Source: Candidatus Odinarchaeota archaeon
Lineage (GTDB): Archaea > Asgardarchaeota > Odinarchaeia > Odinarchaeales > Odinarchaeaceae
Assembly: GCA_016839265.1 (NCBI GenBank)
Contig: JAEOUO010000004.1
Span: forward strand, 1 to 32,000
Reading direction: 5' to 3'
DNA: 32,000 bases
A model generated the notes under the pieces. It was not told the origin of the DNA. It was given only the letters and a program-made list of their open reading frames with translations, and did not search any database. This document shows, in pieces, positions 16,310 to 29,150 of the stretch (position 1 is the stretch's first letter; every line of letters starts with the position of its first letter). The position numbers and the translations under genes were made by a program.

Positions 16310-17248
16310 CTATGATAGAAGAGTTTTATTTATCTCCTCTTTTAACTGTGCATCTAACCTCTCATCCAACGGTTTACTTCTAAGCTCTCTTATAAAACCT
16401 AGTATATAGTTTATCCTCTCATCGAATTTATTCGTGTTCTTCAAATTATATAATAAATCTAAAAGCGCATCATACACACGCTCGTTTACAGCCCCCCCTT
16501 CTAAGGTTTCTCTAAGCTTTTCTAAAGCGTCTTCAACACATGTTACACGTTTCACACCGATATTCTCCAAGTCTTTTCTAATATTATTTTCAATAAGCTT
16601 TAAACCGTAAATGAAACTCTCCTCAGATGATTCGATTACAGCTCTAAGATCTATAACAGTGCTAACTATTTTTTTAACAGCATTCTTTAAGTCACCGGTC
16701 TCAGACTCTCCTATAACGCTTTGTTTTTCTAGAATACTTGTTAAACCCTCCTCTATTTTATTCAATTTCTCTAGAACATTATTTAATTCAGTACCGGTTT
16801 CACCGCCAGGTTTAATAGTTGAAAGCTTCTCGTTAACAGAATCTAATCCCTCTTGAACTGTTTGAGTTAACTGTTCAATATTAGCTTGAAGATTTTCAAG
16901 CCGGTTAACAACTTCATTAAATGTAACACGACTCTCCCCTGTCTCTGAAACATCTCCCTTCACCTCGCTTAATAACTGTTTTAACTCTTCAAAACCTGCT
17001 TTAATATTCTGCTCTAGATTACTTGCTTGAAGCTTACCCACCTCTTCTGTTAAAGCTGTGATAACACTTGTTAACCCTTCAACATCCACTCCAGCTCCAG
17101 CCGCCGGTGTAAGACCCCCAGACTTAAGCTTCTCTATAAGCTCGTCAACCGAAACCTTCAAGCTGCCAACCTGTCTTATAATATAACGGCGACCCTCAAC
17201 CATCTCCTCCATCTTCTTATTTATCTCTTCTAAAACGTTTTGACTCAA
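16310..17248 (-). CDS. Hypothetical segmented coiled-coil protein
   Basis: Long ORF of heptad segments split by G/T/E-rich linkers. TTG 17248 has a GAGGGG SD; the track start is 17266. Confidence 0.75.
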   Translation of the reverse strand: MSQNVLEEINKKMEEMVEGRRYIIRQVGSLKVSVDELIEKLKSGGLTPAAGAGVDVEGLTSVITALTEEVGKLQASNLEQNIKAGFEELKQLLSEVKGDVSETGESRVTFNEVVNRLENLQANIEQLTQTVQEGLDSVNEKLSTIKPGGETGTELNNVLEKLNKIEEGLTSILEKQSVIGESETGDLKNAVKKIVSTVIDLRAVIESSEESFIYGLKLIENNIRKDLENIGVKRVTCVEDALEKLRETLEGGAVNERVYDALLDLLYNLKNTNKFDERINYILGFIRELRSKPLDERLDAQLKEEINKTLLS

Positions 17249-17354
17249 CTCAGCTACCCCTCGCAAATTACTTATCTATAAATTAATGTTTTAGCTTAAT
17301 TAATATTACCTTTAATTTAAATAATACTTTAACTTTAAACTCCGAGGGTTTTCA

Positions 17355-17816
17355 TTGATTATCAGGCGAGCTGATAAATCTGATTTAAATAAAGTATACT
17401 TGATAGAGAAGGATAGCTTCCAGGAGCCTTGGAGTAGAAGATTCTTCGAGTATTTTATAGATTCAGATAACACGGTTTTCCTAATCGCTGTAGAGGAGGA
17501 TGTCCTCGGATACATCATCTGGCAGCTTGAATCAACTAGTAAACTTAAAAATTTTGAAGACTTGAACACCGGGCATCTGCTGAATTTAGCTGTAGGAAGA
17601 GAACACCGGAGGAGGAAAGTCGCCTCCAGCTTACTTGAAAGATTATTCATGGAAATCGATAAATATAAACCGGTGGCTACTTATCTTGAAGTCGCCTGCT
17701 CTAATCAAACTGCTGTGAATCTATACCTTAAATTTAATTTTCAAATTTTATCTTTAATACCGAAATATTATAGATTAGGCGGTGACGCTTACCTTATGGT
17801 TAAAGTCTTGTTTTAA
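17355..17816 (+). CDS. rimI: RimI/Ard1-like N-terminal acetyltransferase (GNAT)
   Basis: IEKDSFQEPW, HLLNLAV..EHRRRKVAS, LEV..SN..A..LY.KF.F, YY..GGDAYLM. Confidence 0.88.
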   Translation: MIIRRADKSDLNKVYLIEKDSFQEPWSRRFFEYFIDSDNTVFLIAVEEDVLGYIIWQLESTSKLKNFEDLNTGHLLNLAVGREHRRRKVASSLLERLFMEIDKYKPVATYLEVACSNQTAVNLYLKFNFQILSLIPKYYRLGGDAYLMVKVLF

Positions 17817-18331
17817 ATTAAACTCTTCAACTCTTTTAAAACCATTTGTTTAACGTTCACCCAGTTACCTCGAGTTAACGTGTAAACTTTCGTATCAGCC
17901 CGCTTTTTCACACTCTCCGTGAAAGCGTTATCGTAGAGCATAATCGAGCCGAAAACTCGACCGGAATCCAAGCTAGCTGTTATAAAATCTCTGAAAACCT
18001 TAGATGATAACTCCATTCTCCCTATTTCATCAACCACTATTAAATCGTAGCCGCCGGTTTTAACCTCCTCCTCTAAAGCTTTCACAACAGTTTCAAGGTT
18101 ATCTAAGAAAACACCGTATTTACCTATGAATACACTGCTCTGCTTATTATCAACTGAAGCTAGCATACTCTCTAAGCCGGAGAATGTTCTAATCTTAAAC
18201 CCTACGCGTCTACCCTGCTTTAAAACCTCTTCTGTTATGAAGCCTACAGTTTTTTTACCGAGCTCTTCAACCACGCTTTTAATCAACGTGGTTTTACCGG
18301 TTCTAGGCGCTCCGGTAACTAGAATATTCAT
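17813..18331 (-). CDS. Nucleoside triphosphatase (THEP1/NTPase_1 family)
   Basis: TGAPRTGKT Walker A, GFITEEV...GRRVGF, GKYGV, VDEIGRME Walker B. Confidence 0.9.
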   Translation of the reverse strand: MNILVTGAPRTGKTTLIKSVVEELGKKTVGFITEEVLKQGRRVGFKIRTFSGLESMLASVDNKQSSVFIGKYGVFLDNLETVVKALEEEVKTGGYDLIVVDEIGRMELSSKVFRDFITASLDSGRVFGSIMLYDNAFTESVKKRADTKVYTLTRGNWVNVKQMVLKELKSLI

Positions 18332-18346
18332 CTCATAAACCCCTTG

Positions 18347-19798
18347 TTAAGCTGCAAGCTTCTTCAGAAACTTAGCGCATAAAGCAGCTTCATCCAGTGT
18401 CTTCTTCAACTCTCCCTCTTTTAATTCATAATCTTCTACTGTGAGCTCGCCGATTTCTTTTTTAGCTTTCAACAATTCTAATTCTTTTTTCAAAACATCG
18501 CTTAAACTATTTAAATCCGTAAGCTGCTTCTCCACGAATTTTTTAAATAACACGTTTTTCTCTTCAAGACGGGCTAGTTTCTCAGAATACTCTTTTTTTA
18601 CTTGAAGGTAGGCGCTTTCACTAATCTTGCCTTCTCTTCTACGCTCCTCTAATACTTTAAGTCTTTTTTCTAATGTAAGCGTTTCTTGAACAGCACCCTC
18701 CCCTGGTAGCCTCTTATACTCTGAGTTTAAATCCCGCTCTAATTTATTTAATTCATCTATCTCGTTTTTAATTTTCTGAAGTTCAACTCTTAATTGTTTT
18801 AGATCTCCTCCAGCGTCTATTTTTAAAAGAATCCCATCTAGTATCTTCTCATATTTTCTTTTAGTAGCCTTCAATCTTTCAAGATGCTCTCTTAACAATA
18901 CCTGTTTTTTTAAAACGTTAAATGAGACCTCTTCTTCTTTAAGCTCTTCAATTATTAAGCGTGGTTTGATTTCAACCAGCCGCCGACCCTCCTCTACTAT
19001 GCTTTTCAACCCGGTTCTCGGCGTGGCTCCTAAATCTTTTATTCTTAAAACTCTAGCTTTAATCCGTTTCACTTCTCCTTTTGAATAGAAAATAAACTCT
19101 TTATTCAAATTCATCAAATTATTTTCATCTAAGCCGAGATTTCTAATATATGTGTTTAACGCGTTTAAATCCGCAGGCTCCTGGTGTCGTCCGAAAAACC
19201 TTATATTACACTGGCTGATAACCTTCTTACTGATATCCGCCGGTCTCTGAGTAACCCATATAGAGTGCAACCCCCTCTTTCGACCTCTCTTCGCTACCTC
19301 CATAGAAAGATCTAAGAGTCTACTATACCCCCCTCTCTCCGGGGCGATTATATGAGCTTCCTCCACTGCTAAAACACACGGCTTTTTCTCTAAACTAGCT
19401 GTTTTAAAAACGGCTTCAAGAATCAGTGAATGTGTTTGAATCTGCTCGGAGGAGAGCAAATCCGAGGTGTCGAATAATAGGATTTGAAACTCCCCGCTGT
19501 AAACGCGCTTCACTATTTGAATAGCGGATTCAAGGTTAAATCCTTCAAAGGATAGGTCTCCGCGGTTACCGCCTATAATAAGAGAAGAATACCAGTCTTT
19601 AAAAGCAGTATACTCCCCTTCAGGGTCTATTACAATAATAGGTATTTTTAAATCAGCTAATTCTTCTAAGATCACCTTAGCAAGATAGCTTTTCCCGCTA
19701 CCAGACTGACCTGTGATGAAAACTCGGAGCCCCTCCTCCTCATAACTGTTTAAATCAATCTGACAGTTTACACCGATATTTAAAATCAATAAAACCAT
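18347..19798 (-). CDS. HerA/FtsK-like (DUF87) ATPase with C-terminal CdvA-like coiled coil
   Basis: GQSGSGKS, IDPEGEY, VEEAH, RGRKRG, TQRP; the C-terminal ~200 aa are helical with two G[KE][IL][ST]xxxY motifs. Confidence 0.8.
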   Translation of the reverse strand: MVLLILNIGVNCQIDLNSYEEEGLRVFITGQSGSGKSYLAKVILEELADLKIPIIVIDPEGEYTAFKDWYSSLIIGGNRGDLSFEGFNLESAIQIVKRVYSGEFQILLFDTSDLLSSEQIQTHSLILEAVFKTASLEKKPCVLAVEEAHIIAPERGGYSRLLDLSMEVAKRGRKRGLHSIWVTQRPADISKKVISQCNIRFFGRHQEPADLNALNTYIRNLGLDENNLMNLNKEFIFYSKGEVKRIKARVLRIKDLGATPRTGLKSIVEEGRRLVEIKPRLIIEELKEEEVSFNVLKKQVLLREHLERLKATKRKYEKILDGILLKIDAGGDLKQLRVELQKIKNEIDELNKLERDLNSEYKRLPGEGAVQETLTLEKRLKVLEERRREGKISESAYLQVKKEYSEKLARLEEKNVLFKKFVEKQLTDLNSLSDVLKKELELLKAKKEIGELTVEDYELKEGELKKTLDEAALCAKFLKKLAA

Positions 19799-19882: not shown

Positions 19883-20536
19883 TCAACACGATTTTAATCT
19901 TTTAACTAAGTTTAAAACACGTCGCTGAAAATCATTTAAATCTTTCACCGTGAACCTACCGGCTTTAACACCATCCCTGTCTAAATAATAGGATTTAACC
20001 CCCAGCTTTCTAGGAATCAAATAATCTTGAATCCAGTTATCCCCTACATGCGCAACCTTATTCGCATCCACCTTCAACTCCATGCATACACGTTTAAAAA
20101 CCCCTGGATCACTCTTCGTTGAATTAAAATCAGTTGAAGCTGAGAACACCCTCCTAAAATATTTTCTAATACGCTTAGTAGTTCGCTCCAAAAACTCCAC
20201 AGCGGAGTTCGAGACAATAATCAAATCAAATCTCTCAGCTAAACCCTCTAAAACCCTCTCAACCTCAGGGTAATAGGAGATAACACCCTCATACTTATTT
20301 AAAACCTCCTCGTAACCTGTTAAACCGAATCTATCAAACCAGTAACTTATCTGATACCATTCTACGCGTTGATCCCCAACCTTCTCATACTCCCCTATAA
20401 TAAACTTCTTAGCCTCCTCGAAGCTAACCCCTTTTTTATCAGCATACAAGCAGGGAATCGCCTCCTCCCAGATTAAATCAGCATATCTTCTAGTCGCTAA
20501 AGTCCCGTCCACGTCAAAAGATAAAACCTTCACCAT
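19883..20536 (-). CDS. HAD-superfamily hydrolase
   Basis: FDVDGTL motif I, VSNS motif II, KSDP motif III, HVGDN..QD motif IV. Alternative TTG start at 20545. Confidence 0.9.
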   Translation of the reverse strand: MVKVLSFDVDGTLATRRYADLIWEEAIPCLYADKKGVSFEEAKKFIIGEYEKVGDQRVEWYQISYWFDRFGLTGYEEVLNKYEGVISYYPEVERVLEGLAERFDLIIVSNSAVEFLERTTKRIRKYFRRVFSASTDFNSTKSDPGVFKRVCMELKVDANKVAHVGDNWIQDYLIPRKLGVKSYYLDRDGVKAGRFTVKDLNDFQRRVLNLVKRLKSC

Positions 20537-20634
20537 AACATCCAACCACTAATAGTTTTCTATAAACCCGGCTTATAATATAAACCCCATAAGCGAAAAT
20601 AGAGCATAAACACTTATAAAATCTTAGACTACAA

Positions 20635-20667: not shown

Positions 20668-20898
20668 TTAGAACGGCAGAGTAATAGAACTTAACGTTCG
20701 AGTAACACCTGGAATCCCCTGAATCTTCTCAATAATACCCTTAATACCCTCCATGTCATCCGCAGCAATCCTGACAATAATATCATACGGCCCTGTAATA
20801 GCGTAATACTCTTTAACACCGTCAATACCCTTCAACTTCTCTAAAACATCATGAATCTTACCAGTCTCAACCTCAACCAACATAAAAACAATCGCCAT
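20668..20898 (-). CDS. Stand-alone Lrp/AsnC ligand-binding (RAM) domain protein
   Basis: 76 aa; VKEYYAITGPYDIIV and IPGVTRTLSSI; GGTGA SD; no HTH. Confidence 0.88.
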   Translation of the reverse strand: MAIVFMLVEVETGKIHDVLEKLKGIDGVKEYYAITGPYDIIVRIAADDMEGIKGIIEKIQGIPGVTRTLSSITLPF

Positions 20899-21200: not shown

Positions 21201-22331
21201 TTATTTGCTTTTTCCTTTTACTGGTTCAAGATAGTTTTTTATCAAGTAGTTCCAGATCCGTTTTTCTTTCACCTCGATAAGTGTCACCTGCTTTCCCAAT
21301 ATTTTGATTATTTTCTTATCCGCTTTTCGAGGCCATTCCTCATACCATCTATACTTAACGTTTATTTGATGAGCGTAAGTTACGCTCTTCGATTTATTAT
21401 AATAGTACTTAGATTCTTTAGTCACTTCAGCTATCCCTAAAACTCTGCACGCCGAATAAATAATGAAAACATCTCCCTCCGAGATTTGATTTTTGAAATT
21501 CCAGAGCTGATCGGTGGTATATTTTATTTTAGTCTTTTCACCCCAAACTCTTTTAGCCTGTCGAGCAACTTCCCGTTTAAGTTCACTATATGAACTGAAA
21601 CGTTTGAGGTCTCCCACTTCATTCCATCCAATAGCTACGAATCCATCACCATTATCTTTAATAAATTGGAGCCATTCACTTTTCCAATATCGCGCCTTCT
21701 TGCCAGGGGAGATTTTCCAAATTTTTTTAGGCTGGGGGCTTATTAATTTCTCTTTTATTTGAACAGGTGATGGCAAAGTATCTTCTTCACCCTTTATTTT
21801 AGAAGCTCTCTCGCTTATTTTGTTAGTTGCACTTGTATATTTTTTAACATCATCTTGAGTTAGATCTGGAGCCGTGTCAAAATAAAATTTGAAAAATTTT
21901 TCTGCATCTTTTAGAAATTCATTGTTTTTCTCTTCTATTTTTACTAGTACATTTGCTTCCGCATTTTTACTCTGCGCAGCCTTAGTGAGGTTTGAAGAGC
22001 CGACCACTATAAATATCGACTCTCCATAGATTATGAACAGTTTTGGGTGAAAACCACGATTATCCCATCTTCTTATAGTGACCCCTTTTTTAGTTGAAAG
22101 CGTTAATAGAGTTTCCGCAGCCTCTTTATCTGTAATTCCAAGTTTACTAGATAAACCAAACACTATTCTTAGTTAACCACCTCTTTTAATCAACGAGTTA
22201 AAGCTTTCCATCAGCGCTTGTAACCCGCTTTCTTTTACATAGGCTATTGCAACATCTACTCTAGTTGATTGACTAATTAATTTCGGTAGTTCCTCAGCCA
22301 GTGAAGGTCCGTCAAGAAATTTTATCTCCAT
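21201..22331 (-). pseudogene. PLD-family nuclease fused to EVE/PUA-like domain, interrupted by an in-frame TAA
   Basis: The frame continues upstream of the track ORF: MEIKFLDGPSLAEELPKLISQSTRVDVAIAYVKESGLQALMESFNSLIKRGG*LRIVFGLSS..., with TAA at 22173-22175. HPK...VGSSNLT PLD motif; C-terminal IWKISPG..YW..AIGW..GDL. Confidence 0.8.
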
Positions 22332-22471
22332 AAAAACCCCCATCTTTATCTTTTACTATAATTTAAATTTATAACTTTTAAATAATTTTTATAGTTTCAA
22401 AATCCTTGATGATTTTTATAAAGAAGACCGCTAATTGTCTCATAGAAATTTATTGATTTATGTGGAATATT

Positions 22472-23524
22472 CTATTTAACTTCTAAAGTTAAATCGTTTT
22501 CTTGATATCCAAATAATGTCAGAATCTTTTTTGAAAGTTTAACAATAGCATTAGCACTAAGATTAGTTTCTACGTAAATATCTGTATTACTTATTTTTTC
22601 TGGGTGCCTTAACTCATTAGAATTTTTAGAAAAATACGGTCTCTTTTTTCCTACCAAATTCAATACCATCCCAAATTGGTTTCTATGAGACAAAAACATG
22701 ATTTCACATATCTTAATCAACATTCCTACCCACGATTTTACTGGATATTTTTCACTCCTAAAAGTAAACGAGATAATCGACTTTCCCGTGTATTCTTCTT
22801 TTTCAGAAATTATAGGGGGGGCTGCCACTTTTGTTTTTGATGGTTTTACTAGTGTGGGGGTAGTAATAGTTTTTAAAAACTGTGCAATTGCTTCGCTATC
22901 TGGTTTATAACCGCATATTTTTTCTGTTGTAACAGACAAAAGTTCAACTAAAATCTCATCCTGCTCTTTTATGATCTTTTCCCAAGCTTTAGGAATACTT
23001 TCTTCAATTAATTCCTGTTTTCGTCGGTTTTTATAGATATTTTCAGCATTTTCTACAGCTTTACTAGAAATTATATTTTGCTTTGCAAGAAACATTTCAA
23101 ATTTCTCTGCTATGTCTTTCGCGTCTTGTTCGCATAAATCAATGTTATAAAATTTTCTCTGCTCCCAACTTCCTTCAGTTAAAGGTAGATAAAACCACCA
23201 GCTGATCCCATTAGTGAGGATTGCAAGCTTAACCCCTTCTTTAAATGAATATTTTAAAAGCTGATCTTGATGTTTTTCTAAATCTTCACCAGGCTTCTTG
23301 ACTTCAATAAAAACCTTGTTTTTATCACCACACCTGAGAGCGTAATCCACTTTACCGGCTTCAATAGGATATTCAGGATAAACCTCGTCTATATTATAAA
23401 AATTCCAACCCAAACAATCTAAAATTTTCAAAACCACAGCCTGCTTAACAGCCGCCTCATCAAAAAAACTAAGTCTACTATCTTGTTGAAAACTATTTAT
23501 TAAATCAAATAACCTTTCATTCAT
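22472..23524 (-). CDS. HsdR N-terminal-type PD-(D/E)xK nuclease with SeqA-like C-terminal domain
   Basis: EVYPEY, VDYAL, FIEVKK, QLLKY catalytic motifs; C-terminal GKKRPYFS..ELRHP.KI..TDIYVETNLSA. Confidence 0.75.
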   Translation of the reverse strand: MNERLFDLINSFQQDSRLSFFDEAAVKQAVVLKILDCLGWNFYNIDEVYPEYPIEAGKVDYALRCGDKNKVFIEVKKPGEDLEKHQDQLLKYSFKEGVKLAILTNGISWWFYLPLTEGSWEQRKFYNIDLCEQDAKDIAEKFEMFLAKQNIISSKAVENAENIYKNRRKQELIEESIPKAWEKIIKEQDEILVELLSVTTEKICGYKPDSEAIAQFLKTITTPTLVKPSKTKVAAPPIISEKEEYTGKSIISFTFRSEKYPVKSWVGMLIKICEIMFLSHRNQFGMVLNLVGKKRPYFSKNSNELRHPEKISNTDIYVETNLSANAIVKLSKKILTLFGYQENDLTLEVK

Positions 23525-23838
23525 CCTATCAAATCCTTAACTCTGTATGTCTTTTAAATATATACTTTTAAAATTATTTATATAAAATTTCTATGATTTC
23601 TATTTTATTAAACTGATTAATTTAATTTGCGCTATTACTTAGTTATAAACTTTTATAAATAAAATATTAATACTCCCAGCTAATAATTTTAATCAAATCT
23701 ATTAAATTTTTAAATCTTAACTGTTACTTAGCGTTTGATAAAAAACTATTTTTATAGAATATAAGTTAAGTATGATCCTTTACCATGTTAATAAAAAATT
23801 ATTTAATGTTGAAGAACTCTTTTATTAATGGGGATTAA

Positions 23839-26800
23839 ATGACATTTACGCTGACAGAACCTACGGCGGCTTCTGAAATTAAGGAGCTTATTAATCAGAT
23901 TATTCAGGAGGAGAATTTACCTTTAGACTCAGCAAAAGTGGAGTTAATGGATTCTAGAGGGCATAGACCCGACATAATTATATTCGATCGATTAAATAAA
24001 CCAATATGCGCTATAGAAGTAAAACGTCCTTTTATATCCCCGTATCAAATTGAATTATTTGAACAAGCATTACAATACGCTAACACTGAAGGAATCCGTT
24101 TCTTCGCAACTTTTAATTTTAACACTCTCGTATTATGGGAGACATTTAAAGAAGGGGTTCCAATTAGGGATAGACGATATAAAGAATATTTTACCGCTGA
24201 TATAATTGATTTACACGATCTTCTACAGCTCTCAGTCAAGAATAATATCAAAAAGGGTCTTAGAGAATTTTTACAAGACTTAGTAAAACTTCAAGTGGCT
24301 AAAAAGACCGAGGAGATTCTGCCGACTCTTGAATTTGATAAAATCTTCATTGACTATCTTCATTCCCTTTTGAACTCAATGAAAATCCCTTTAGTTACTG
24401 AACTCAATAAAAAACTTGATATTGATCCTGTTTTTAAAAATAAACTCTTAGAATGGTTAACTACACAAGGATGGGATTCTACATATATAGATGTTAAGGG
24501 CGTAATAGATGTTGTAGCCCGCCAGTATATTTTACTTCTCTTAAATAAGATAATGTTTTATAAAATTTTAAGCTCACGTTATAAAGAGATAAGACCACCT
24601 AATTACAAGCTTTTAAGTCTCCCAGATGAGTTACCTACATTGAAAATACCTGAAGATATCACTGATGGTGGTAATTTACAGCGCATTTTAAAGAGTTTTT
24701 TTGAAAAAGTTCTGCTCATAGACTATGAAACAATCTACGAATCCGATTTCCTGGATGAGATTAAACTACCAGACCCCCTTGTGTCACCTATAAGAATACT
24801 TGTAAATGAATTTGATAAATATGATTTCACCAAGATTGACTATGAGGTGCTCGGGAATATTTTCGAACGGCTAATACCTGAAAAAGATCGTCATCTACTA
24901 GGCCAATACTTCACAAGATCGGATGTGGTTGACCTAATTGTTGCCAGCTGCGTTAAAAATAAAAATGATGTTATTCTCGATCCTGCTTGCGGGGCAGGGA
25001 CATTTTTAATCCGCGCCTATTCCCGCTTAAAATATCTTGGTGCTGAAGGTCCTCACAGTAGTTTTCTAAATAAATTATGGGGTATAGATATAGCTAAATT
25101 CCCAGCCCACTTAACCACAATTAATCTTGCTATAAAAGATTTATCGGAAAGAAATAATTATCCAAGAGTGATCTGCTCAGATTTCTTCAAAGTTTCACCA
25201 GGGACCAAGATTTACTCACCTTATTTTATAACTGAAGGATTAGATAAAAAAAATTCCCGGCATGAACTCCCCTCGTTTAATGTAGTTATGACCAATCCCC
25301 CTTATACACGGCAGGAGGAGATGGAGGAGAAACTTGAAGAAGGATATAAGAATACCGTAATAGAATTAATAGCAAAAGAAACTGGGATGACACTAGGTAA
25401 AAGAAGCAGTATTTACGCTTACTTTTTCCTGCATGGAAGCGTTTTTCTAGGCGATGGAGGTAGGCTTGGTTTAATCACATCAAACTCTTGGCTTGATGTA
25501 GACTACGGTAAATATTTACAAGAATTTTTCTTAAAGAATTTTAAAATAAAATATATAATCGACTCTAAAGTAGAAAGATTTTTCGAAGACGCAGATATTA
25601 ACACAGCGATAACAATCCTTGAGAAATGCAGAAATCAAGAGGAGCGCGATAATAATATTGTGAAATTTGTAGAGTTGAGAAAGAAGTTGCCTGAAGTTCT
25701 CTCATATTTTGGTGACCACGACACTGAATACGAGAAATGGACGGATAAAGAAAGATGGGCGGCTGTAGATAAATTTTTAGCATACCTCGATAAAATAAGC
25801 GGCATCACTATAAATGAAGAAATAGGAGTAAGAGTCTACCCTAAAAATCAGAGAGAATTATATGAAGAAGGCCTTGAAGAGGGAAAATATGCCGGCTCAA
25901 AATGGGGTAAATATATTAAAGCCCCAGATATCTTCTTTAAAATATTAGAAAAAGGAAAAGACTTATTTATTCCTCTAAAAGATATTGCGGATATTACAGG
26001 AGGAATTATAACAGGTAAAAATAATTTTTTCTATCTTAGAGAGAGTCAGATAAGAAACTTTGGAATAGAAGAAAAATTCTTGATTCCAGTGATTAAAACT
26101 CCTAAGGAATTAGGAAAAATTTATTTTACTAAAAAAGATCTGAAATACAAGTTGTTCTTTGTTACGGAGGAAAGAAATAATATTAAAGGAACTAATGCAT
26201 TAAAATATATTGAATATGGTGAAAAACAAGGATTCAACACTAACCCAACATTCAAAGCGCGAAAACATTGGTACCAAATACCAGAATTGAAACAAGCTGA
26301 ACTATTATGGATTGATTTAAGAGGGGAAAAACATATTTGCCATTTGAACGTCGATAATGTACCATTTGAACATAATTTCTATGGTATAAATCCAAAAAAA
26401 ATAAATAAAGAACTCTTATGCGCCTATCTAAACAGCACTCTTTCTTGGTTATTTATAGAAGTACTTGGTAGAAGCAGTTTAGGAGAGGGTGCAATAAGGT
26501 TGGTTGGACAGGATCTTAAAAATTTTCCTACAATATTGCTTAAAGAGGGGGTGCCCGACTCTTTAAAGATTCAAAAGATTTTTGATAAACTAAAACACAG
26601 GGAGATTGAAAGCGTGTTTAAAGAAGTCGGCGCGAATAAACCCGAAGAAGTTTCCTTAGAAAAAGTTAACCAAGATGTAAGGGAACTTGATAAGGTAATA
26701 ATTGGTGAAATTTTAGGTTTAACTGATGAAGAACAATTAGAGGTTTACAGGGCGGTTGTTGACCTTGTTAAGTCGAGGATAGAAAAAGCCAAGAGCGTTG

Positions 26801-27252
26801 AGAGAAAAAGCAATAAAGAAGAGTTTTCCACGAACATAGACCAGATAAAAGACATAGTTTTGCATGGAATAGACAAGACAATAGTAGATGATGTGAAAAA
26901 GTTTATTCCAGAAAATTATGATAATAGAGTGATTGAAATTAAAGCTTCGAAGAGTATTGAGGTTAAAGTTGATTTGCACGGTAAATTTAAGTTGGTAAGT
27001 GGTGAAGAAGAAGTTGAATTCTCTACTTTAGAGGAGGCTGAATATGCTAGATATATGTTGATGAGAGGTAAAGAGAGGATGGTAATTCCAAGAGATACGC
27101 AAATTTTACGTGATGTTCTTGTTAAGTTTAAGAAATTGGATAAGGCGATTAAAAATAGGATCAATGAATATTTGAAACAATTAGTGAGTAAGGAGAAAAA
27201 ACGGAAATTAATAGAAGCTGAATTATATAGGAAGATCTGGGCTGCTTTATAG
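23839..27252 (+). CDS. Type IIG restriction-modification enzyme (nuclease + N6-adenine MTase + TRD)
   Basis: RPDII..AIEVKR and QALQY nuclease motifs; LGQYFT, ILDPACGAGTFL (motif I), NPPY (motif IV), GRLGLITSNSWL; C-terminal TRD; 1137 aa. Confidence 0.88.
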   Translation: MTFTLTEPTAASEIKELINQIIQEENLPLDSAKVELMDSRGHRPDIIIFDRLNKPICAIEVKRPFISPYQIELFEQALQYANTEGIRFFATFNFNTLVLWETFKEGVPIRDRRYKEYFTADIIDLHDLLQLSVKNNIKKGLREFLQDLVKLQVAKKTEEILPTLEFDKIFIDYLHSLLNSMKIPLVTELNKKLDIDPVFKNKLLEWLTTQGWDSTYIDVKGVIDVVARQYILLLLNKIMFYKILSSRYKEIRPPNYKLLSLPDELPTLKIPEDITDGGNLQRILKSFFEKVLLIDYETIYESDFLDEIKLPDPLVSPIRILVNEFDKYDFTKIDYEVLGNIFERLIPEKDRHLLGQYFTRSDVVDLIVASCVKNKNDVILDPACGAGTFLIRAYSRLKYLGAEGPHSSFLNKLWGIDIAKFPAHLTTINLAIKDLSERNNYPRVICSDFFKVSPGTKIYSPYFITEGLDKKNSRHELPSFNVVMTNPPYTRQEEMEEKLEEGYKNTVIELIAKETGMTLGKRSSIYAYFFLHGSVFLGDGGRLGLITSNSWLDVDYGKYLQEFFLKNFKIKYIIDSKVERFFEDADINTAITILEKCRNQEERDNNIVKFVELRKKLPEVLSYFGDHDTEYEKWTDKERWAAVDKFLAYLDKISGITINEEIGVRVYPKNQRELYEEGLEEGKYAGSKWGKYIKAPDIFFKILEKGKDLFIPLKDIADITGGIITGKNNFFYLRESQIRNFGIEEKFLIPVIKTPKELGKIYFTKKDLKYKLFFVTEERNNIKGTNALKYIEYGEKQGFNTNPTFKARKHWYQIPELKQAELLWIDLRGEKHICHLNVDNVPFEHNFYGINPKKINKELLCAYLNSTLSWLFIEVLGRSSLGEGAIRLVGQDLKNFPTILLKEGVPDSLKIQKIFDKLKHREIESVFKEVGANKPEEVSLEKVNQDVRELDKVIIGEILGLTDEEQLEVYRAVVDLVKSRIEKAKSVERKSNKEEFSTNIDQIKDIVLHGIDKTIVDDVKKFIPENYDNRVIEIKASKSIEVKVDLHGKFKLVSGEEEVEFSTLEEAEYARYMLMRGKERMVIPRDTQILRDVLVKFKKLDKAIKNRINEYLKQLVSKEKKRKLIEAELYRKIWAAL

Positions 27253-28143
27253 TATTTTGTTTAGTGCTTGTTTTAGTGTGTTTGTTTGTTGTGTGATGTT
27301 TTTCCAGGGGTTTGGTGTGTTTTGTAGGTGTTGGAATATGTTGTTTATGTTGTAGGTTTTAGCGTTTAGGTTTTTGTTTTCTAAGTCTTTCCATGTTATG
27401 GGTGTTGCGATGGGCGCTGTTTTTTTAGCGCGTAGGGAGTATGGTGCGACTGAGGTTTGAGCGTATGCGTTTCTGGTTGTGTCTATGAAGAGTCTGTTTT
27501 TTCTTTTTTCTTTTCGTTGTTCGACGGTGATTTTATCCGGGTTGTTTTTAGCTATGTTTTTAGCGATTTTCTGGGCGAATAGTCGTGTTTGCTCGAAGGT
27601 GTGTTCTCTTTCTATTGGGATGATTACGTGGACTCCTTTGGATCCGGTTGTCATAATAAAAGTGTTTAGTTCTAGCTTATCTAAGGTTTCTTTGATTAGG
27701 AGGGCGGTTTGCCGGACTGATTCGAAGTCTTCTGGTGTAGCTGGGTCTAGGTCGAATACTATTTTATCAGGGTGGTTTGGTTTATCGTATTTGGCGAGCC
27801 ATATGTGGGGTGTGATGCAGGCTTGCTCGGTGATGTATAGGAGGGTTTCCTTGTTTTGGCATAACAGGTATGTGGTGTCTCCTCCTGTTTTATTATCTAG
27901 CTTGATTTTTTCTATCCATGGGGGGAAGTATTCCGGAACTTCTTTTTGGAAGAAGCCTTCTTTGCTTATTCCATCGGGGAAGCGGTGCATTGTTAATGGT
28001 CGATCTTTTAAGTATGGTAGCATTAGATTCGCTATTTTTTCATAGTATTGTATTACTTGGAGTTTGGTGATTTTATCGTCCGGGTATAGTATTTTATCAG
28101 GGTTGCTGACTTGGATGACTTGTTTTCCTGCTTTAATCTGCAT
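27247..28143 (-). CDS. ligD: NHEJ LigD polymerase (AEP primase-polymerase) domain protein
   Basis: SNPDKILYP, RFPDGI..FFQK, PDKIVFDLDP (DxD), TTGSKGVH, VAPYSLRA. Confidence 0.9.
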   Translation of the reverse strand: MQIKAGKQVIQVSNPDKILYPDDKITKLQVIQYYEKIANLMLPYLKDRPLTMHRFPDGISKEGFFQKEVPEYFPPWIEKIKLDNKTGGDTTYLLCQNKETLLYITEQACITPHIWLAKYDKPNHPDKIVFDLDPATPEDFESVRQTALLIKETLDKLELNTFIMTTGSKGVHVIIPIEREHTFEQTRLFAQKIAKNIAKNNPDKITVEQRKEKRKNRLFIDTTRNAYAQTSVAPYSLRAKKTAPIATPITWKDLENKNLNAKTYNINNIFQHLQNTPNPWKNITQQTNTLKQALNKIL

Positions 28144-28145
28144 TT

Positions 28146-29150
28146 TTAAGCCTCTGGGATTTCTTTTACTACTGTGCGGGGGTCTTTGTCTCTTCTAACT
28201 CCGAGTAGACGTGGATGGCGTAGTTTACCGGTTTTAGTCCACTCTGTGAAGCCTACTTCTACTACGATTTCAGGTTTCACCCAGGTGACGTTTTTCTCCC
28301 CTGTTTTATCATCGGTGGCGGGGGTGTTTTGTTTTAATGCTTCCAGTTGCCTGGTTAACTGGATTAAGAGCGTGCGGTTGAATCCTGTTCCGACTTTTCC
28401 AGCGTAGATGAGTCTATCTTTATCATAGTATCCTACTAGTATCGCGCCTAATCCGATGCGTGAGCCTTTAGGCGGAGTGTAGCCGATGATCACGAACTCC
28501 TGTTCGTTAACGCATTTGAATTTCAACCAGTCTGTTGATCTTTTATGCTGATATTCGCTGTCAGCTCTTTTAGCGATTACTCCCTCCCATCCTTTTCTAC
28601 AGGCTTCCTTATAGTATTTTACGCCTTCCTTCCATATATGCTCGGTGTATCTTAACGGATCTTGGTAGGTTAAATGTTTTCTTAATAATTCTTTTCTTAA
28701 TGTTAATGGGAGTTTTTCGATAAGATAGTTTTCAATGTATATTAGGTCGAAGATGTAGTAGTAGACTTTTATCTTTGATTTTAAAGCTTCCTCCCTGTTT
28801 TTTATTCCGATTCTTTCCTGTAGTTTGGAGAAACTGGTGTTGTCGCCTTGGAAGGCTACGATTTCACCGTCTATGATGAAGTCGGGGGTTTTCTGTTTTT
28901 CTAAGGCTTCAACGATCTCCGGGTAGGTGTCGCTGATGTCTTTTCTATTTCTGGATAATAGTTTGACGTGACCGTTTTTCTTAAATGCTAAGCATCGCTC
29001 TCCGTCTAGTTTACGCTCATATATCCAGTTTTCATCCGAGAACCGTTTACTGGTTAGGGTTGCTAGCATGGGGTCAACCCAGTCTGGTACGCTTGTTTTC
29101 ACGAGTAGATTCCTGTATTTCTGGTCTACTTCGTCTAGGATGGTGTTCAT
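28146..29150 (-). CDS. ligD: NHEJ LigD-type ATP-dependent DNA ligase domain protein
   Basis: PMLATL, ERKLDG (motif I), IDGEIV, YIFDL, EGVIAKR, WLKFK, GKVGTGF, LRHP. Confidence 0.92.
   Translation of the reverse strand: MNTILDEVDQKYRNLLVKTSVPDWVDPMLATLTSKRFSDENWIYERKLDGERCLAFKKNGHVKLLSRNRKDISDTYPEIVEALEKQKTPDFIIDGEIVAFQGDNTSFSKLQERIGIKNREEALKSKIKVYYYIFDLIYIENYLIEKLPLTLRKELLRKHLTYQDPLRYTEHIWKEGVKYYKEACRKGWEGVIAKRADSEYQHKRSTDWLKFKCVNEQEFVIIGYTPPKGSRIGLGAILVGYYDKDRLIYAGKVGTGFNRTLLIQLTRQLEALKQNTPATDDKTGEKNVTWVKPEIVVEVGFTEWTKTGKLRHPRLLGVRRDKDPRTVVKEIPEA

Follow-up and report, generated by a model that had tools for sequence, protein, structure and literature searches.

A HerA-type ATPase fused to a coiled-coil and CdvA-like module in Odinarchaeia

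The gene described here encodes a HerA-type ATPase joined to the coiled-coil and CdvA-like module of a separate Asgard gene, and was shown to be a chimera restricted so far to Odinarchaeia, in a single family of Asgard archaea from hot springs. It lies in the analyzed window (the whole stretch of 32,000 nucleotides at the start of an Odinarchaeota contig), is assembled from parts of two known kinds, has a narrow distribution, and is dispensable to the cell. We somewhat favor a reading as an optional accessory ATPase docking by its steadiness-box-like hairpins, through putative binding, onto ESCRT-I-like or paralogous helical proteins. The first-pass annotation, made from the sequence alone, had taken the fusion to be undescribed, and no account of it was found in the searched literature, with the supplements of Makarova et al. 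covered in part.

The open reading frame encodes 483 amino acids, with the gene caller beginning at codon 4 (TTG) to give a 480-aa protein (P0002). In the AF2 model (mean pLDDT 89.9), a compact core up to residue ~250 and a disordered linker (residues 259–281) are followed by five helices (residues 293–328, 333–360, 367–388, 394–448, and 454–482). The features of the gene are as follows.

18347..19798, minus strand: whole fusion gene, comprising a HerA/FtsK ATPase, linker, coiled-coil hairpin, and CdvA-like three-helix domain
19049..19798, minus strand: ATPase core, residues 1–250, DUF87/HerA clan (PF01935, 48 bits; Foldseek)
19688..19711, minus strand: Walker A, residues 30–37, identical in all four fusions
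19241..19366, minus strand: Walker B (residues 145–149), Arg finger (171–176), and Gln sensor (183–186)
18956..19024, minus strand: disordered linker, residues 259–281 (pLDDT <50)
18719..18922, minus strand: coiled-coil hairpin, residues 293–360, common to the standalone Asgard Zn-ribbon family
18353..18700, minus strand: CdvA-like three-helix domain, residues 367–482 (profile and fold matches)

With Walker A, Walker B, the Arg finger, and the Gln sensor all present, the core is intact and compact, as had been claimed. The reported lack of a HAS barrel and of a nearby nurA was also confirmed, with the core beginning at residue ~5 and the host NurA and a canonical-size, 526-aa HerA being located on another contig (C2). 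The core is likewise without a large helical insert. In Foldseek searches, it matched HerA and the STIV2 B204 packaging NTPase with TM-scores by target of up to 0.81, the compact B204 being the most complete structural match. The fusion scored 44 against the canonical repair HerA profile NF040819 (cut-off 970) and 14.3 bits against FtsK PF01580 (cut-off 24). The nurA/mre11/rad50 operon context of repair HerA was not found at the fusion, and the predicted model contains none of the membrane anchor, alpha, and gamma domains of FtsK/SpoIIIE. Matches to a PHROG "terminase" and to PADLOC HerA/mad8 were rejected as indications of function, since both reflect the generic core only.

In the core tree, the fused ATPases are monophyletic (98/91 support) and lie within a set of non-fused relatives. 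The source of the ATPase was shown to be a patchy family that otherwise has mostly an ATPase–coiled coil–winged-helix-like architecture and resides in accessory or defense islands, with its own C-terminal half, including the winged helix, having been lost in the fused form. Close relatives of the core occur in 7 of the 301 Asgard genomes, and the non-fused ones adjoin integrase and N6-methylase genes, type I restriction genes, or Cas1/RAMP genes. Among the matches listed in metagenome and viral scans, only non-fused relatives of the ATPase were present, and in the ESM Atlas the structure search gave TM <0.4 and feature searches yielded generic DUF87 and zinc-ribbon clusters only. As a separate observation, the non-fused sister ATPases at L079, L235, L236, and L120 are flanked by recurring, unannotated genes of ~130–180 aa (some of them winged-helix-like) and ~252 aa, with restriction or Cas genes adjacent; these flanking genes possibly constitute an undescribed defense or island module.

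The first-pass annotation had likened the helical tail to the CdvA coiled-coil domain. This holds for residues 367–482, which are truly homologous to that domain, and not for residues 293–360, which form an extra coiled-coil hairpin not present in CdvA. With a profile of the tail and its standalone relatives, the best PDB match was Sulfolobus islandicus CdvA (9S9G; E 1e-5, gapless over 95 residues), and the predicted tail fold also had 9S9G as its best structural match (Z 13.3, rmsd 1.4 Å, 122 aligned residues); for helical bundles such a Z is borderline, but for the tail sequence and structure agree. The next structural matches were the Asgard OST1 tail and then ESCRT-I headpieces, and Foldseek comparisons with CdvA chains gave rmsd values of 1.1–1.6 Å for most. 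The two steadiness-box-like hairpin turns are centered on G390 (nt 18631) and G450 (nt 18451), and the coordinates agree with the spacing of 60 residues noted earlier; the equivalent positions in S. islandicus CdvA, Q98 and S158, show the same spacing in the gapless alignment. The CdvA hairpin has itself been related to the steadiness box (Makarova et al.; PMC11188069).

A check of the tail against the CdvA profile had also been proposed, and its outcome was mixed. By itself the fusion reached 16.6–19.1 bits on PF18822 (23.8 for the homolog P0003), below the gathering threshold of 30, which several standalone relatives exceed; homology was instead recovered through the standalone profile and the fold. 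The tail scored 105.3 bits against a standalone-only profile, with 500 shuffled sequences reaching at most 0.5 and the reversed sequence −5.5, and an hhalign comparison with a PF18822-positive CdvA-type protein gave a probability of 97% (E 8e-11). The tail is thus neither a SHOCT domain (11.4 bits, cut-off 27) nor a generic coiled coil, either of which the annotation had allowed that it might prove to be. A PDB search with the single tail sequence returned unrelated coiled coils only. GvpG and SHOCT matches of the tail were rejected as identities, as they reflect single hairpins.

The double hairpin is promiscuous, being joined to antiporters, OST1, and many membrane proteins. In one Asgard family, membrane proteins of 530–580 aa (L046, L047, L049, L057, and L059), which by eye are cation/proton antiporters, end in a CdvA-like double hairpin, and some exceed the PF18822 cut-off. 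A 560-aa host protein (G000 C1:714266-715948), probably ribophorin I (OST1)-like, has a terminal double hairpin matched by the tail profile, and the MK-D1 OST1 cytoplasmic domain is the second structural match of the tail. The 564-aa Asgard protein at L116:1639-3333 is another fusion of the same module: it has a steadiness-box-like hairpin at the N-terminus, carries the coiled coil–CdvA-like module in full, and has a C-terminal half that is unclassified.

The donor of the tail was shown to be a Zn-ribbon–coiled-coil–CdvA-like gene and not CdvA itself. The standalone-only profile matches the whole tail module (~190 residues) at E 1.4e-30, and the host carries a standalone paralog (C1:174342-175037, 231 aa) with an N-terminal zinc ribbon that matches the tail at E 5e-13. 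Alignments show that the fusion is without this zinc ribbon and has the ATPase in its place, the position of the zinc ribbon and linker of the donor being occupied by the linker at residues 259–281. The standalone family is present in 251 of the 301 Asgard genomes, mostly in single copy, and its gene lies outside the ESCRT cluster. The same architecture has been described as arCOG03733 (Makarova et al., 2024; PMC11188069), to which the Asgard family is likened here by shared architecture. A complex prediction of the tail with the host standalone paralog scored 0.23 (mark 0.32) and has no bearing either way. The fusion draws attention to this widespread, unstudied gene and shows that a motor can take the place of its zinc ribbon, even at the native locus. 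In several Asgard families, the standalone gene sits in a conserved three-gene cluster (L029:6013-7440, corresponding to G000 C1:174012-175439; L014; L021; L034; L036) between a gene of ~98–118 aa and a Cys-rich gene of ~110–125 aa, neither with a Pfam or PHROG match, and a tRNA endonuclease or SPFH gene often adjoins the cluster.

Five database proteins besides the window copy carry or probably carry the fusion, namely P0003, P0004, P0005, P0006 (partial), and the frameshifted copy of O. yellowstonii; the full-length homologs are annotated as Odinarchaeia. When 1.8 billion representatives were searched with the tail profile, none of the best 150 matches other than the known fusions had a canonical Walker A. 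P0003 lies at the same locus as the window fusion, on a contig that also has the standalone gene at its native locus. P0004 and P0005 lie at the native locus of the donor itself, between a tRNA endonuclease plus ~98-aa gene and the Cys-rich gene, neighbors that are conserved across several Asgard families. In the tail tree, the P0004 and P0005 tails group with Odinarchaeum standalones and the window-type tails form long branches. Whereas the cores form one clade, the best tree does not unite the tails; their monophyly is, however, not rejected (p-AU 0.163), a value with which a single fusion event would be compatible. The fusion is intact in at least four lineages, at 43–55% identity and with the catalytic motifs invariant.

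Two neighbors mark the locus in the window.

17813..18331, minus strand: THEP1-type NTPase (PF03266), downstream neighbor
19883..20545, minus strand: HAD hydrolase, upstream neighbor and locus marker

The gene is under selection yet optional. In the congener G002, a single contig carries the HAD and NTPase genes as direct neighbors, separated by 143 nt without a fusion, and the fusion was not found in G003, which is 93% complete and in which the fusion locus is not assembled. The O. yellowstonii copy lacks 1 nt within a poly-A run, which moves it out of frame near residue 423; the downstream frame is open and conserved, and the deletion may be an assembly error or a recent event. By a simple counting method, dN/dS relative to O. 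yellowstonii was 0.23 for the core, 0.49 for the tail before the frameshift, 0.23 after it, and 0.10 for the standalone protein; the window tail is 53% identical to its O. yellowstonii counterpart versus 81% for the standalone protein, and has an Arg where 28 of the 29 family members are hydrophobic. A chance chimera that is now decaying is consistent with the poly-A deletion and with the gene having been lost or never gained in G002 and not found in G003; we consider it highly improbable in view of the conserved, intact copies in at least four lineages and of dN/dS values that stay below 0.5 throughout, even past the frameshift.

Regarding the THEP1-type NTPase, to which the annotation had tied the fusion through apparent co-transcription, the 15-nt gap between the two genes was confirmed. 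However, functional coupling found no support, given the insertion of an extra gene between them in one relative and the NTPase not being beside the fusion in two others, and the adjacency is judged to be inherited synteny with an incidental neighbor.

Other parts of the window were observed to be as follows. A restriction/defense island at 21201-27252, between the LigD genes and AsnC, holds a PLD-EVE protein, an HsdR-N protein with a SeqA-like C-terminus, and a 1137-aa type IIG-like methyltransferase; in L074 the corresponding site is empty, and in G002 a different gene, of 556 aa, occupies it. A split LigD, consisting of primase-polymerase and ATP-dependent ligase genes, is encoded at 27247-29150, a locus conserved in three Odinarchaeia genomes. 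A 318-aa coiled-coil protein of no known family (16310-17266) is kept at the locus in related genomes. Two very similar small AsnC-type genes lie at 20668-20898, near the fusion, and at G000 C1:181024-181260, near the standalone donor gene.

The tail might alternatively be a replacement oligomerization stalk, with the ATPase keeping an island job (DNA translocation in defense, repair, or element maintenance) unrelated to ESCRT. We regard this as rather unlikely. Non-fused relatives already have a coiled coil at this position and live in defense or mobile islands, the distribution of the core is patchy, and the window copy is near the LigD polymerase and ligase genes and the restriction island. 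However, no island partner genes accompany the fusion, its winged helix has been lost, and the LigD neighborhood is also present in G002, which has no fusion. Furthermore, in two lineages the fusion sits at the native position of the highly conserved donor gene, which suggests that it performs the role of that gene.

The host, Odinarchaeum, is an Asgard and not a TACK archaeon, with a genome of 1.35 Mb (97% complete). The premise that it has Cdv/ESCRT-type genes proved correct: ESCRT-III, Vps4, and ESCRT-I/II-like genes are present, and the ESCRT cluster is located on C1 near 951–963 kb, where the fusion is not encoded. At 203 and 214 aa, the two ESCRT-III proteins appear to be too short for the CdvB winged helix, because the Snf7 match runs to residue 184. 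Searches of the host with PF18822, PF05239, and a CdvA-type protein did not find a PRC-CdvA, and matched only the fusion tail, the standalone protein, and, weakly, a small PRC-like gene. Polymerization of CdvA depends on the PRC barrel, and its binding of CdvB on the E3B peptide (PMC12818579); both are missing from the fusion, which ends with its last helix at residue 482. The six CdvA filament-interface positions A90, L94, I100, I149, M153, and I156 correspond to V, R, I, E, A, and E in the fusion, three of them thus being charged, and across the family alignment charged or polar residues predominate at three positions.

Several Asgard families, among them the host's sister family, encode large HerA proteins of 886–1013 aa whose genes adjoin ESCRT-III genes or lie between them, with examples at L214, L215, L216, L220, and L221. 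In two families, they have a C-terminal steadiness-box-like hairpin by motif, with a weak profile match (E about 1e-3). Searches of four Odinarchaeum genomes, including a closed one, found no such HerA, and the fusion could therefore stand in for it; G002 appears to be without both. The fusion was rejected as an ortholog of this HerA, as a 99/98 branch separates their cores.

These observations bear on the role originally proposed, that of a septal DNA pump: an FtsK analogue moving DNA at an ESCRT/Cdv division site and placed there by the CdvA-like tail. In its favor are the true CdvA fold, the host ESCRT-III and Vps4, the appearance of CdvA rings before DNA segregation in Sulfolobus (PMC12557731), and the existence of the ~900–1000-aa ESCRT-operon HerA in other Asgard families and not, as far as found, in Odinarchaeum. 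However, a CdvA-style division role was not supported by the analysis, given the missing PRC barrel and E3B peptide, the host in which no PRC-CdvA was found, its apparently too short ESCRT-III proteins, and the absence of the fusion from the intact G002 locus. The charged filament-interface positions, the frameshift in the O. yellowstonii assembly, and the lack of orthology between the fusion core and the ESCRT-operon HerA count against it as well. Three FtsZ/tubulin genes are also present in the host, and in vitro the Odin proteins FtsZ1, FtsZ2, and SepF act like a division system (PMC12583498). A septal pump is therefore considered very unlikely. A broader proposal is that HerA motors have repeatedly been joined to Asgard ESCRT via steadiness-box hairpins, with the fusion independently replacing, in the family of Odinarchaeum, a lost ESCRT-III-operon HerA, docking on a pan-Asgard CdvA-like scaffold, and moving DNA at an ESCRT-remodeled membrane neck in division or vesicle packaging; this is speculative and quite unlikely. 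Convergence with the ESCRT-operon HerA may keep a link to ESCRT alive and is not proof of one.

The ATPase has acquired the coiled-coil and CdvA-like (double steadiness-box) module of the Asgard donor gene in place of the zinc ribbon; in the favored reading, it is an accessory ATPase docked by its hairpins. By family membership alone, the core would form a hexameric ring with ATP-driven translocation, and the substrate is probably DNA, on family precedent. Six flexibly linked tails could then dock the ring by hairpin-to-hairpin packing onto an assembly of the native Zn-ribbon–CdvA-like protein or onto steadiness-box, ESCRT-I-like subunits. These targets are suggested by steadiness-box biology: Vps23 and Vps28 assemble through steadiness boxes, and the two Odin proteins do form a complex (PMC9192718), and Asgard steadiness-box fusions have been proposed to bind ESCRT-I (PMC11188069). 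The protein would be an optional motor on an ESCRT-I-like helical scaffold and not a core division protein. Counting against this reading, the donor family is of no known function and lies outside the ESCRT cluster, and the window tail evolves faster than the standalone protein; moreover, the hairpin need not signal ESCRT, because proteins of many unrelated kinds carry the double hairpin. The fusion touches on the wider question of the Asgard division mode and the roles of the many steadiness-box proteins. If only a lineage-specific accessory, it would be a clean case of a mobile-element ATPase domesticated by domain capture. Practical work is helped by the thermostability of Odinarchaeum proteins and by the earlier purification of its ESCRT subunits.

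Compared with CdvA of Sulfolobales (PF18822; PDB 9S9G and 9S9I; PMC12818579), the fusion has in common the three-helix domain with two turns 60 residues apart, but adds the coiled-coil hairpin and N-terminal ATPase, is without the PRC barrel and C-terminal E3B peptide, and has R, E, and E in place of the interface residues L94, I149, and I156; CdvA proper is encoded with cdvB and cdvC, whereas the fusion is not. With the arCOG03733-type proteins and their Asgard counterparts (e.g., OdinLCB4_001365), it shares the whole coiled-coil plus CdvA-like module, but has a HerA-type ATPase instead of the zinc ribbon. The Asgard multidomain steadiness-box proteins and the ESCRT-I Vps23/Vps28 headpiece resemble the fusion in their steadiness-box-like hairpins and patchy, lineage-specific fusions (PMC11188069; PMC9192718), while the hairpins of the fusion are in tandem and its gene lies outside the ESCRT cluster; the texts of these two papers make no mention of a motor ATPase as a steadiness-box fusion partner. 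The large ESCRT-operon HerA has a HerA core like that of the fusion but one hairpin only, and the fusion belongs to a separate clade and is not beside ESCRT-III genes. Finally, HerA (4D2I and 9X1M), STIV2 B204 (4KFU), and FtsK share with the fusion a RecA-like core with Walker A and B, Arg finger, and Gln sensor; unlike HerA and FtsK, the fusion is without a HAS barrel, NurA partner, membrane anchor, and gamma domain, and is compact like B204.
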